IMG/VR virus record: IMGVR_UViG_3300031519_000149
Location: 1 to 29,707 of that record
Length of the DNA: 29,707 bases
Source: a virus
Taxonomy: Duplodnaviria; Caudoviricetes
Reading direction: 5' to 3' (one strand)
The translations under genes and the position numbers were made by a program. Below, piece by piece: positions 3,759-6,959 of the stretch (within the stretch, counting starts at the first letter, position 1; each line of letters begins with the position of its first letter). A model generated the notes under the pieces. It was not told the DNA's origin. It searched no databases and was given only the letters and a program-made list of their open reading frames with translations.

Positions 3759-4604
3759 ATGACAACAAATCAAAATAATCCACTGCGACAATACTTTCGT
3801 AGACCATCTGTGTTCATTTCACTGCCATCTGATGGCAAAGGATACGCACCTGAAGATATCGAATTCGAAGATGAGAACAATAGAGAACTACCAGTTTATC
3901 CAATGACTGCTATTGATGAAATTACCACGAAAACTCCAGACGCACTGTTTAATGGTTCGGCAACTGTAGAAATTATTAAGAGTTGTATTCCTGCTATAAA
4001 GAATCCATGGAAAGTTTTAAGTTGTGATATAGATGCTATATTAATCGGTATTAAAGCCGCTGGCGGGGAAGATTCGTTGACAGTAGAGTCAAAATGTCCT
4101 AAAGAAGATTGCGACACAACAGAAGATTATGCTATCAATTTACAAAATCTATTACGATCTATTAAATCTGGAGATTATGAAACGCCTTATAAAGTAGGAG
4201 AGTTAGAGGTTTATTTTAAACCCATTGATTACAAAGTAATGAACGAGATTAGTTTGGAGCAATTCAACATTCAAGCAAAATACAGCAGACTTGCTGAAAT
4301 GGAAAATAACGCAGAACGCATTAAAGCAAACCAAGAGGCATTAAGAGACATTACTGAAATAACTATGGATGTGCTAACTGCGGCGATTGACAAGATTGGT
4401 TCCCCAGACGGTGATGTAGAAGAAAAAGAACATATAGTTGATTTCTTAAAAAATTGTGACACAAAAACATATGAAGGAATTAGAGACTATAACGCAGACC
4501 TTAGAGCAGTAAGCACAATTAGATCACTAGATATGAAATGTGCTACATGTGAACATGAATACAAACAGCAATTCACACTGAACGCAACTGATTTTTTCGC
4601 CTAA
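3759..4604 (+). CDS. gp26: Baseplate hub / tail assembly protein, T4 gp26-like (281 aa)
   Basis: N-terminal NPLRQYFRRP..I.LPS.G, PMTAIDEI, DIDAILI.IK, two Cys pairs (CPKEDC, CATC) and a C-terminal DFF are characteristic of gp26-family proteins. SD GAGGA is upstream. Confidence 0.75.
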   Translation: MTTNQNNPLRQYFRRPSVFISLPSDGKGYAPEDIEFEDENNRELPVYPMTAIDEITTKTPDALFNGSATVEIIKSCIPAIKNPWKVLSCDIDAILIGIKAAGGEDSLTVESKCPKEDCDTTEDYAINLQNLLRSIKSGDYETPYKVGELEVYFKPIDYKVMNEISLEQFNIQAKYSRLAEMENNAERIKANQEALRDITEITMDVLTAAIDKIGSPDGDVEEKEHIVDFLKNCDTKTYEGIRDYNADLRAVSTIRSLDMKCATCEHEYKQQFTLNATDFFA

Positions 4605-4828
4605 GGCTTTTATCACTGGACCCTGACGGGGTAAGAGACCTAATAGAATCGTATAAAAAATATACACAGGGAATTAAAGAACAAGCACTTACATTCTCTT
4701 GGTACATGAGAGGTGGAGCCACCTATGAAGATGTACTTAACATGTCTTCACAAGAAAGAATGAGTATAAAAAACTTAATAGAAAAGAATTTGGAAACTAC
4801 AAAAGAAACTCAATTACCATTTTTCTAA
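4592..4828 (+). CDS. gp51-like baseplate assembly domain, probably expressed by a -1 frameshift from the gp26-like gene (or as a 40-aa ORF from the ATG at 4706)
   Basis: Open -1 frame FFRLRLLSLDPDGVRDLIESYKK...LTFSWYMRGGATYEDVLNMSSQERMSIKNLIEKNLETTKETQLPFF*. The W.M.G..Y.D..NM...ER motif resembles gp51. The frame is bounded upstream by a TGA at 4589-4591 and has no ATG/GTG/TTG in its first 38 codons. Confidence 0.6.
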   Translation, partial: FFRLRLLSLDPDGVRDLIESYKKYTQGIKEQALTFSWYMRGGATYEDVLNMSSQERMSIKNLIEKNLETTKETQLPFF

Positions 4829-4868: not shown

Positions 4869-4975
4869 AAGTTCTCTACGAGAACTTAATTACTCATTCA
4901 CTTCGTTCATTCGTAATTTTATTTCTAATAAGATTATAAAAGGATTAATTAATTCTTAATTAATTATATAAGTGC
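4869..4975. other. AT-rich block with hairpins/palindromes (possible origin or terminator region)
   Basis: AAGTTCTC-TAC-GAGAACTT (4869-4887); AATTAC/GTAATT (4888-4918) enclosing TCATTCACTTCGTTCATTC; ATTAATTAA-TTC-TTAATTAAT (4944-4964). Only 8 of 60 bases are G+C in 4921-4980. Confidence 0.4.
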
Positions 4976-4986
4976 TTATTACTTTT

Positions 4987-5335
4987 TGAGAGCCATGGTA
5001 GTGCCGGACAAGCACTACCAATGGTTCCAGGTTCTCATTGCTCCCGTCGATCCATGTTGATTATCCCCGACCTACTACGTTACTATAGTTGATCGCTACC
5101 GGTTGCCCTGTAAAGTTTGCTGGGTTGTAGTTGAGCCTATTACATTAATAAACATAATATCTCGGCAACGCATGTTCTATATCATCAAATCAAATAGATA
5201 TAGACTCATTGAGGGTTCGCTATCCATGACGATTGCCCTCTCGGTATTGTTGTGTATAACACACTACTCCAAATCTGTAGCCCATCACTACAATGGGTTC
5301 CTCGAGGAGAGCCGAGCGTAAGTCACGGCTATGCT
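4987..5335. ncRNA. Candidate structured non-coding RNA (~350 nt), family unknown
   Basis: No credible ORF. About 44% GC by hand count (160/360 in 4981-5340) next to a very AT-rich flank, with at least nine inverted-repeat helices (listed in findings). Orientation is unresolved. Confidence 0.5.
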
Positions 5336-5356: not shown

Positions 5357-5926
5357 TTACTTAGAAAGAAGTGTTTCTTGTATTGACTTGGTGTCTGTTA
5401 GTTTTGAGTTGGTCTCTGAAGTGCCTGAATATGCTTTGAATATATCTTTGTTAAACTTAAAGAAATGATCATGCTCTATGATAATCCAATCAGCATGTTT
5501 TGCTGATGTATAGTACATAAATTGATCACTCACCCAAGTGTATTTGCTCGGCAAGCAAATGAATTTTCCTTTACGATTAAACTTCATAAACAGAACATTC
5601 AGATCATCTTCATCTGCTACGTCCATTAATTGATCTAACCATGAATCAAGTTGCTTACATGAACCTGCAAGGACTTGATGAAAAGGAAAGTCTGCGTAAA
5701 ACTTACATTCTACATTAAGTTTAACAAAACTTTCTCCAGGAACAATATCCCCTTTAAAACTTCTGATCTGTCCTTCATGTAAAATTTGTGTACGAGATTG
5801 ATTTTTACCACCTACGTAAGCGCCTGATCCAGGTGCTCGAATAAAACTTTCTTTATAAAGATCGCTTAGATAATTTGCGATTTCTCGCTCGTATCCTGAC
5901 CCTTTGTTTTTAGACATTGATGGCAT
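5357..5926 (-). CDS. PD-(D/E)XK nuclease, Hjc-type Holliday junction resolvase-like (T5 D14-like); likely start at MPSMSKNKG
   Basis: SKNKGSGYEREIA, R.PGSGA, GDIV and VECK match the Hjc/D14 pattern. The ORF track start at 5986 overlaps the upstream gene, whereas the ATG at 5926 follows a promoter-like GATAACTA. Confidence 0.75.
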   Translation of the reverse strand: MPSMSKNKGSGYEREIANYLSDLYKESFIRAPGSGAYVGGKNQSRTQILHEGQIRSFKGDIVPGESFVKLNVECKFYADFPFHQVLAGSCKQLDSWLDQLMDVADEDDLNVLFMKFNRKGKFICLPSKYTWVSDQFMYYTSAKHADWIIIEHDHFFKFNKDIFKAYSGTSETNSKLTDTKSIQETLLSK

Positions 5927-5942: not shown

Positions 5943-6959
5943 TTACCACTCAGTGGCATAATTTTTATCGACCCTATTGTGGGCACATTTGTTCTGGCAC
6001 TCGTAAGAGCCGTGTATAAACTCAGACACCCAAAAAGAATCTCTTACTACTTTGGGTAATTGTTTCTCGTGTAGATTATATTTCTTACCTACATCACGCC
6101 ATTTGTCATTGTGGCCGTATCTTGTCGCTACCCAACAGCAAGGATAAAATTCTCCTCTAGCATTGATGTAACTACCTTTGTTGCCTATGTGACAGAGCGG
6201 TCTTTCATTGCCTACTAGATTAGACTCTTCAAACAATCTAATGTTTGTTCTCATCCAAGGTTCTAATATCTCTTTATCTGTTAACTTAAACACTTCTCTT
6301 TCAAATCTATGACTAGATGATAACAGTTTATCACTTGGTTGTAAAGCATCGTCTTTCCCATAAGAGTCTTCGTATATCTTTCCAAACTTAGTACTCTTGG
6401 TTAATTGAAACGCATCAAAACCTAACTCTTTTGCATAGGCTTTCATATCTTCTATCTTATCTTCGTTAAACTTAAATCCTATAGCGTCCCATACTGTGTA
6501 GCATTTAGACTTGTCGTTGATTGTAGTGACGCCTGTGATGATACTAGACCAATTAGAGTTAATTCTATACTCATTGTTGCTTTTGTGATCCCATCCATCA
6601 ATACTAAAGTGTATTTGATCTTGTTCATCTAGCAGTTCTGCCAGTCTTGTCCACCAAACTTCGTTTTTGTATGATCCATTAGTAACAATAACGATTGCTA
6701 TCTCTGGCTTGATCGATTTAAAGTATTCAATGACTTCAATAAAATCATGGGCATAGATAGGATCGCCATCATCACCACAAAATGTTAATTTCTCTATGTT
6801 CTTTTTAACAAATGCTTTTGGAAAGTTAGACTTAAAGAAGTCTAACTTAAGTTCAGTACTGACTAAAGTGTCAGGAACTTCTTGTCTAGGACAACGAGGG
6901 CACTTAAGAGTACACTTACTGCTGATCTCAATGTGCCAGTGCCAAAGTGCTAGGCTCAC
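5943..6959 (-). CDS. Radical SAM protein with C-terminal SPASM/twitch-like domain (338 aa)
   Basis: CxxxCxxC motif CTLKCPRC, GDDGDP (GGEP-equivalent), VTNGS and FSIDG; C-terminal PLC...YINARGEFYPCC...CQNKC. The GTG start overlaps the gp46 TGA (GTGA). Confidence 0.9.
   Translation of the reverse strand: MSLALWHWHIEISSKCTLKCPRCPRQEVPDTLVSTELKLDFFKSNFPKAFVKKNIEKLTFCGDDGDPIYAHDFIEVIEYFKSIKPEIAIVIVTNGSYKNEVWWTRLAELLDEQDQIHFSIDGWDHKSNNEYRINSNWSSIITGVTTINDKSKCYTVWDAIGFKFNEDKIEDMKAYAKELGFDAFQLTKSTKFGKIYEDSYGKDDALQPSDKLLSSSHRFEREVFKLTDKEILEPWMRTNIRLFEESNLVGNERPLCHIGNKGSYINARGEFYPCCWVATRYGHNDKWRDVGKKYNLHEKQLPKVVRDSFWVSEFIHGSYECQNKCAHNRVDKNYATEW

Follow-up and report, generated by a model that had tools for sequence, protein, structure and literature searches.

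The gap between a baseplate hub gene and a Holliday-junction resolvase gene of a large T4-like phage holds a structured non-coding RNA gene of about 350 nt (positions 4985–5335, minus strand, ends approximate), for which conservation, covariation and a 346-nt metatranscriptome contig speak. Sequence comparison gives strong evolutionary evidence for its fold, that of a knotted and uncatalogued RNA, which hundreds of large aquatic phages have retained. New folds of large RNAs seldom come to light, and all checkable relatives have this one. We regard it as a real and strongly supported structured RNA, probably linked to a family that is tractable in the laboratory; its function is predicted.

Genomic setting, conservation and novelty

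The window, by which we mean the whole 29,707-nt (29.7-kb) stretch of DNA analysed here, is a fragment of a large T4-like phage as judged from its gene content by profile matches: portal, tape-measure-like, gp26-like hub, resolvase, radical SAM, gp46/47, late sigma factor and baseplate genes. By resolvase and gp26, the closest cultured relatives are the jumbo phages SCTP-2, Phosso, PA5oct, Atu_ph07, BF and RaK2. The element occupies the gap between convergent genes. Downstream of it are the gp26-like baseplate hub gene and a small ORF, presumably gp51-like (3759–4828, plus strand; phrog_150), and upstream is the RusA/Hjc-like PD-(D/E)XK resolvase gene (5357–5917, minus strand; phrog_244 E 1e-20, PF24608 E 1e-26). 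A TTTTTTC run is found at the end of the gp26-like gene (4592–4598, plus strand), the small ORF then following in another frame. The radical SAM gene (5943–6959, minus strand) is inserted between gp46 and the resolvase gene and is missing there in relatives L066 and L147.

This layout is conserved. A resolvase search in IMG/VR yielded 80 loci. In the 76 that include both flanks a gap is kept without exception, 407–532 nt long save for one of 1104 nt that has an inserted gene. Profile search detected the element in 79 of the 80 resolvase-found loci and in 119/119 loci selected by the terminal hairpin alone; we estimate that about 410 stored stretches match this hairpin. In loci picked by the RNA core alone (105 of 120 parsed), the resolvase gene is upstream in 60 of the 61 with enough upstream DNA, the exception having been a bacterial contig matched by chance, and the downstream genes are convergent in 64 of 66. 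The co-occurrence with the nuclease, a check proposed in the preliminary description, is tight within the aquatic clade, and is broken in the likely homologs considered below and in L146, a 12-kb fragment with no resolvase and with a gene in front of the element that we read from its sequence as GIY-YIG-type. Genes, homing-endonuclease-like or other, are inserted beside the cassette without disrupting it in L146 (1589–2032), L147 (2682–3179) and L066 (4029–4640). Both complete genomes scanned carry one aquatic copy each, and each of five long contigs has one strong blastn locus. A looser scan with a 5′ motif gave mostly chance matches and was abandoned; the element was present in 19/120 of its loci, all next to the usual genes.

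The earlier proposal of a novel phage RNA family is supported both by comparative covariation and by the lack of database matches. No family of Rfam 15 (including GOLLD, ROOL, ARRPOF, introns, ribozymes, RNase P and tmRNA) reached its gathering score anywhere in the window, the best local E-values over the element are at chance level (0.4 and 4.6), and a tRNA/tmRNA search detected none, just as none had been recognised on inspection. By blastn the element matches none of 50,697 records of cultured phages. In the literature, chiefly freely accessible papers, we found no description of the aquatic family or of the Rak2-type family introduced below. The candidates in the consulted part of Fremin et al. 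2023 (PMC10690425) are 29–151 nt long, and six motif strings are absent from six of its supplementary files; files 1, 2 and 4 lay outside this comparison and may hold fragments of the aquatic RNA. The main text of the COMPASS preprint (10.64898/2026.10.21.760802) holds nothing on phage, resolvase or baseplate. The element at 4985–5335 is non-coding, since a 72-codon plus-strand ORF (5103–5321) has no Pfam or PHROG match and, for 40 of 68 relatives, the difference in core length from the window is not divisible by three.

Fold, strand and transcription

The GC enrichment noticed earlier is confirmed (45% in the element vs 37% in the window). Folding energy is better than that of shuffled sequences only modestly (z −2.19 on the plus and −1.45 on the minus strand), and because of this weak single-sequence signal we turned to comparison with relatives. 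From 168 full-length copies, 72 were kept at <95% identity (mean 67%), and the alignment A1 contains 69 of these, three with long insertions having been dropped. A structure of 65 pairs, derived from the same sequences on which it is scored, is 98.0% paired on A1, and at 47 of its pairs both partners change; this level is reached in none of 500 shuffles, and slid controls drop to 32–44%. Under a tree-simulated null (40 alignments), 16 of 62,835 column pairs are significant at E ≤ 0.05. Fourteen of these are base pairs (in P2a, P3, P5, P6, P9 and PK1) and the other two are cross-terms of neighbouring pairs. The comparative evidence in relatives is therefore strong.

The helices named in the preliminary description were all recovered at their positions, one inner stem in a slightly different register. 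From the 5′ end of the RNA (minus strand throughout), P1 (5310–5330) is a variable hairpin that recurs in relatives with other letters, by eye, and is outside the counted structure. We discarded a plus-strand interpretation of the 5′ hairpin as domain-V-like, since it lacks conservation. P2 (5267–5309), a near-invariant CUCC/GGAG helix around the variable P2a, is 100% paired with two-sided change at two of four pairs. The variable hairpin P3 (5250–5263), which accepts long insertions, is 94.5% paired; all five of its pairs covary and one passes the tree null. The core is closed by the long-range helix P4 (5246–5242 with 5101–5097; 98.8% paired, two-sided change at three of five pairs). Inside it are P5 (5211–5240), a hairpin with an internal loop that is 100% paired and has two pairs passing the tree null, and P6 (5172–5209), with four such pairs. 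The P6 loop (5193–5189) pairs with 5061–5057 to form the pseudoknot PK1 (5057–5193), which had been missed at first reading. It is 97% paired, 5/5 pairs covary, and the pair 5193–5057 exceeds all 40 null alignments. P7 (5102–5169; GUUGCC/GGCAAC) surrounds the variable P8 and the invariant ACUACA and UUUACAG, and is common to the Rak2-type RNA. A second pseudoknot, PK2 (5065–5124), joins a C-run in the P7 loop (about 5124–5121) to a G-run after P9 (5068–5065). It is 96.8% paired and includes the seventh-ranked pair in covariation; on A1 neither PK2 nor P4 is significant under the tree null. The hairpin P9 (5068–5095) has five pairs that pass it. A previously proposed long-range pair, 5125–5131 with 5287–5293, is not conserved, its partner being present in 4 of 72 relatives.

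The RNA ends in the near-invariant hairpin P10 (4996–5020; UGGUAGUGC/GCACUACCA), which is 99.7% paired with almost no covariation and is found in 100 of 104 core-selected loci. Its 5′ strand is complementary to the invariant core ACUAC, and this alternative helix may represent a switch. In L163 the element is split (about 2820–2653, minus strand) by a repetitive insertion of about 150 nt in the P8 stem, and a structured stretch of about 230 nt is situated between resolvase gene and RNA; this locus shows which arms tolerate insertions.

Orientation, which had been left open, is settled as the minus strand. Read on this strand, the alignment has 126 G–U vs 15 A–C cells, and G–U exceeds A–C at 29 of the 65 pairs with the reverse at 3; the RNA strand is therefore minus. 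GNRA tetraloops occur in 60 of 395 short loops in the sense and in 11 of 372 in the antisense direction.

Fourteen metatranscriptome runs contain part of the stretch, and four of them were examined by contig mapping. RNA contigs with 0–4 differences cover the element in all four; one of 346 nt spans 4979–5317 with 4 differences, and a contig from a relative bridges resolvase gene and element. It is important to note that the runs were selected for containing the stretch and that the flanking genes are covered too. Contigs give neither strand, ends nor level, and depth cannot rank the element against genes. For these reasons the contigs are only a hint that the aquatic element is expressed.

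The cassette and its counterparts in cultured phages and islands

The RNA is part of a cassette with a fixed order: box, RNA, AT-rich tract, GNA hairpins. The box is an inverted repeat, GAC/GAG-N5-GTC/CTC, present in two copies in the 3′ end of the resolvase gene (5385–5416, minus strand). A GAC-N5-GTC (also GAG-N5-CTC) box 39–85 nt before P2 was found in 65/68 relatives vs 1/204 control windows. It falls in the last codons of the resolvase and persists twice in non-coding DNA in L146; pairing of the box with the UGACGG of the RNA shows no covariation by eye. Behind the RNA is a tract of 16% GC (4905–4985), by composition a candidate DNA unwinding element. The tract is followed by two GNA-triloop hairpins read from the sequence (4869–4918, minus strand), one at 4918–4888 with tandem G·A mismatches and one at 4887–4869. 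C-GNA-G loops and tandem G·A pairs are stable in DNA rather than in RNA. In contrast to these DNA-type tail hairpins, the RNA body has RNA-type loops (GNRA/UNCG) on the sense strand. Of 69 aquatic relatives, 60 have the GNA hairpins on the RNA strand and 5 have them on the opposite one. No sigma-70 or TGAAAC promoter was found within 200 nt of any of 72 aquatic copies.

In the cultured phages BF, XaC1, PHA46, 121Q, GAP32 and EJP2 an ORF-poor gap is present in the same slot, beside endonuclease VII or no resolvase; the endonuclease VII of Rak2-like phages is unrelated to the resolvase and divergently oriented. The sequence of this slot, which we call Rak2-type, recurs at 274 places in 62 phage records. 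Four to five spaced copies are typical of Rak2-like phages, with five co-oriented ones each in BF, PHA46 and XaC1, and RaK2 itself has two copies elsewhere and none in the slot. Each copy consists of a promoter, 450–550 nt of structured sequence, an AT tract and GNA hairpins. A TGAAAC- or TTGACA-type promoter precedes 42 of 55 copies, and according to the part of the phage CBB study at hand the TGAAACG class precedes many DNA-synthesis genes (PMC5259590). The hairpins are on the non-template strand in 49 of 55 vs 3 opposite. The lowest 40-nt GC downstream has a median of 0.20 in both aquatic and Rak2-type families, as a matter of composition only. In BF, 4/5 copies have no annotated nuclease neighbour, and 4/5 head co-directional gene runs, about 100–150 nt before the next gene. 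Copies are more evenly spaced than under random placement in BF (gaps 52–84 kb, P=0.005) and PHA46 (P=0.002), with P=0.07 in XaC1, these genomes being related and the values hence not independent. Nothing can be learned from co-orientation, since the minus strand carries just 34 of the 554 genes of CBB. GC skew is likewise uninformative as an origin test, since it follows gene direction: total skew flips about 5–10 kb from the element in genomes G002 and G003, and skew at fourfold sites tracks the gene strand in both and is near zero in BF. ORF-free gaps of 0.4–1.6 kb occur elsewhere in G002 (154–170 kb), G003 (3.8–5.5 kb) and BF (273–329 kb), some of which are probably tRNA clusters.

Among 58 non-redundant Rak2-type copies, 26 column pairs are significant under the tree null (E 0.05), and 25 of these are base pairs; PK2 passes in this set only. 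The core repeats the aquatic order: a hairpin with the PK1 loop, the P7 5′ strand CGUUG, the PK2 5′ strand in the P7 loop, ACAG, the P7 3′ strand NCAAC, immediately the P4 3′ strand, a hairpin, the PK2 3′ strand, 1–3 nt, the PK1 3′ strand and CUAYCA. The two pseudoknots and the order around P9 are shared, and covariation is independent in each family. A descriptor of the P7 junction (GUUGN/NCAAC after ACAG, P4 3′ strand next) matches 72/72 aquatic and 58/58 Rak2-type copies vs 0/130 reverse complements and 8/1300 shuffles, with the circularity that it was designed on both families and that the Rak2 set was chosen by a pattern containing these letters. Its pseudoknot part adds little specificity, as 7 of the 8 shuffle matches passed it too. 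The 5′ halves of the two RNAs differ. There is no nhmmer cross-match between the families at E 10, and a covariance model, which lacked P7, gave no match in the core (best E 0.06, outside it). Against Rfam the Rak2-type copies reach at best 35.5 bits where the cut-off is 99. On balance the similarity of the cores makes it probable that they share ancestry. Alignment columns 926 and 1018 of the Rak2-type set covary as C–C or U–U, which fits two 3′ strands competing for one partner, i.e. a 3′-end switch. The link to cultured coliphages (121Q, PBECO4, Sharanji on E. coli K-12) makes this otherwise metagenome-only RNA testable at the bench.

The Rak2-type pattern also matched 11 genome contigs, nine with a full element and two by chance. 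Eight are enterobacterial chromosomal islands (L471–L477 and L480), in seven of which the cassette directly adjoins an integrase/recombinase module. The islands often carry a CI/Ner pair, an LprI-type gene, a resolvase and variable anti-phage cargo, with DarT, Hachiman, Kiwa, GmrSD and nSTAND3 as defence genes. GNA hairpins are on the non-template strand in 5 of the 8 island copies vs 1 opposite. Among 28 island proteins scanned, which are part of each island's ORFs, there is no primase or replication-initiator family, and the island RepB belongs to the ParB-type partition family. The cassette has no match among 72,556 plasmids and partial matches in 2 of 5,426 E. coli genomes.

In PA5oct and Phosso the resolvase points away from the slot. 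Paralogues of the region in the PA5oct slot lie at 12.9 and 246.2 kb, so that three copies are present (NC_071039.1: 12.9, 75.8–77.1 and 246.1 kb). The 246.2-kb paralogue is ncRNA004 (NC_071039.1:246116–246734), annotated from RNA-seq with 0.08, 0.03 and 0.02% of phage reads in the part of that report consulted (PMC7318152); for the slot itself the available supplements list no counts. The slot annotation (L081, 1500–2900) includes four tiny 'CDSs' that are probably pieces of the structured cassette of PA5oct. The region has no sequence or core-descriptor match to the aquatic or the Rak2-type family; the layout is parallel, and we therefore treat PA5oct as an analogy. Sinorhizobium phage Phosso and a relative (L083 1974–2989 and L323) have a different structured ORF-free region of about 1 kb, in single copy, between an RNase HI gene and the resolvase gene, with GNA hairpins on both strands. 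The Phosso region matches neither family.

Possible function and comparison with known systems

The fold, the strand and the fixed order of the cassette stand on the comparisons above; beyond this anatomy, function is what we infer. Our leading suggestion, held tentatively and by analogy, is that the element is the primer RNA of an RNA-primed, T4/ColE1-like phage replication origin. The RNA would be transcribed with, or directly after, the gp55-gp47-gp46-resolvase operon, and the fold of its 5′ part would hold host RNA polymerase in position or make it stall. The 3′ end would stay hybridised in the AT-rich tract as an R-loop and prime leading-strand synthesis, while the displaced strand, with its DNA-type hairpins, would load helicase/primase. 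We prefer this reading because of the T4-like order of the cassette, the hairpins on the displaced strand, the dispersed copies in relatives and the uptake of the whole cassette by islands. Even spacing counts for an origin, since position should matter for a cis-acting element and not for a diffusible RNA. Against an origin, only one aquatic copy is present per complete genome scanned, no promoter can be recognised for it, and the compact fold would compete with hybrid formation. The promoter, spacing and island arguments depend on the Rak2-type homology.

A diffusible 'ornate' RNA of the GOLLD/ROOL kind, which would bind a protein complex of the host or the phage and act as a scaffold, a decoy or a counter-defence, is a possible, somewhat doubtful alternative. 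Extra copies would then mean dose, and islands would have taken the RNA as a decoy. The complex two-pseudoknot fold with invariant unpaired letters, the discrete-looking 346-nt contig and the island genes for DarT, Hachiman, Kiwa and GmrSD agree with such a role, which however explains neither the spacing of the copies nor why an AT tract and DNA-type hairpins on one particular strand accompany them; the paralogue of the positional counterpart in PA5oct is low in abundance. The spacing would suit long operons as well, and in BF four of the five copies stand ahead of genes that run in their direction. Both would fit a cis-acting element of transcription, either a processive antiterminator or a structure for processing mRNA ends, that allows polymerase to run through long operons. 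We consider this unlikely, as genes run convergently towards several island copies and towards the copy that occupies the same slot as in the window, and the hairpin tail is DNA-type in look. That tail would rather agree with the whole element folding as ssDNA, as a packaging, ejection or recombination signal for which RNA is irrelevant, and covariation alone cannot separate RNA from ssDNA, a point made in the accessible part of PMC5737381. This is improbable in view of the promoters that Rak2-type copies have of their own, of sense-strand GNRA/UNCG loops and of RNA contigs over the element in 4/4 examined runs, themselves selected for containing the stretch.

In favour of an RNA partner or guide of this nuclease, by analogy with HEARO/omega-RNA and in line with the partner suggested in the preliminary description, the resolvase is adjacent and co-directional in 60/61 loci and one RNA contig joins gene and element. 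Such a role now looks very unlikely, because the neighbour is swapped for endonuclease VII or absent in Rak2-type copies and replaced in L146. The protein is an ordinary one of 186 aa without additional domain in Pfam or PHROG, and the resolvase of PA5oct and Phosso faces away. The obligate adjacency to one RNA-binding nuclease family that would mark a partner of the HEARO/omega-RNA type is not found here, the Rak2-type part of this statement being by inferred homology. The invariant core and the nested pseudoknots resemble those of catalytic RNAs; a ribozyme or intron remnant is nevertheless hardly probable, given that Rfam yields no intron or ribozyme match, that no gene is interrupted and that the contigs examined contain no splice joint across the element. 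Taken together, the observation behind the preliminary description is confirmed, and its interpretation is supported for the novel RNA and poorly so for the nuclease partner; the structured replication element that it also proposed is, as a prediction, the reading that we prefer.

Returning to the RNA-primed origin, a wider and more speculative extension, which we find rather doubtful, is that a superfamily of double-pseudoknot primer RNAs serves as the origins of the T4-like jumbo-phage clade, with one copy in aquatic phages and four to five spaced copies in enterobacterial ones, and that defence islands stole the cassette and are amplified by the phage replisome. In the literature searched, chiefly freely accessible papers, no mapped replication origin was found for T4-like jumbo phages of 300–500 kb. 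If the element is a replication primer, it would explain how these phages begin DNA copying. If this is true, it would be a second folded primer RNA beside that of ColE1, structurally unrelated to it, and a route for defence islands to ride the replisome of a lytic phage.

Several known systems resemble the element in part. GOLLD and ROOL are large, multi-junction, pseudoknotted phage RNAs of unknown function. Unlike them, the element is smaller, gives no covariance-model match, is outside a tRNA cluster and has a fixed DNA-type tail. ARRPOF, GEBRO and PAGEV are described, in the consulted part of PMC5737381, as structured motifs of 223–349 nt in replication-tied regions, RNA vs ssDNA being undecided; they are plasmid-borne, and the aquatic element has no Rfam match to any family. 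PA5oct ncRNA004, to the extent that it is described in the consulted part of its source, has the same strand relative to gp26 and a promoter, AT tract and hairpin, and differs in having no detectable common sequence or core and three copies. In T4, according to the part of PMC3016281 used here, oriF and oriG consist of a middle promoter and an AT-rich unwinding element, the transcript forms an R-loop that primes the leading strand and requires no folded RNA, and no fewer than five origins operate; the same text also mentions that ColE1 is primed by RNA. As far as that account goes, minimal T4 origins are of about 100 bp with no conserved RNA fold, whereas the candidate origin here comprises a covarying pseudoknotted RNA of 350–550 nt and GNA hairpins. 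In common with T4 oriF(uvsY) and oriG(34), a transcript would run into an AT-rich tract in a T4-like phage, and the Rak2-type relatives alone add several dispersed sites and a middle-type promoter. ColE1 RNA II is a long folded untranslated primer RNA with a downstream primosome site. Unlike ColE1, the element is carried by a phage and not a plasmid, and no antisense RNA I was found. The likeness to RNA II lies in the layout, in that a long untranslated RNA folds and a hairpin signal comes after it on what would be the displaced strand, and not in any known similarity of sequence or fold.
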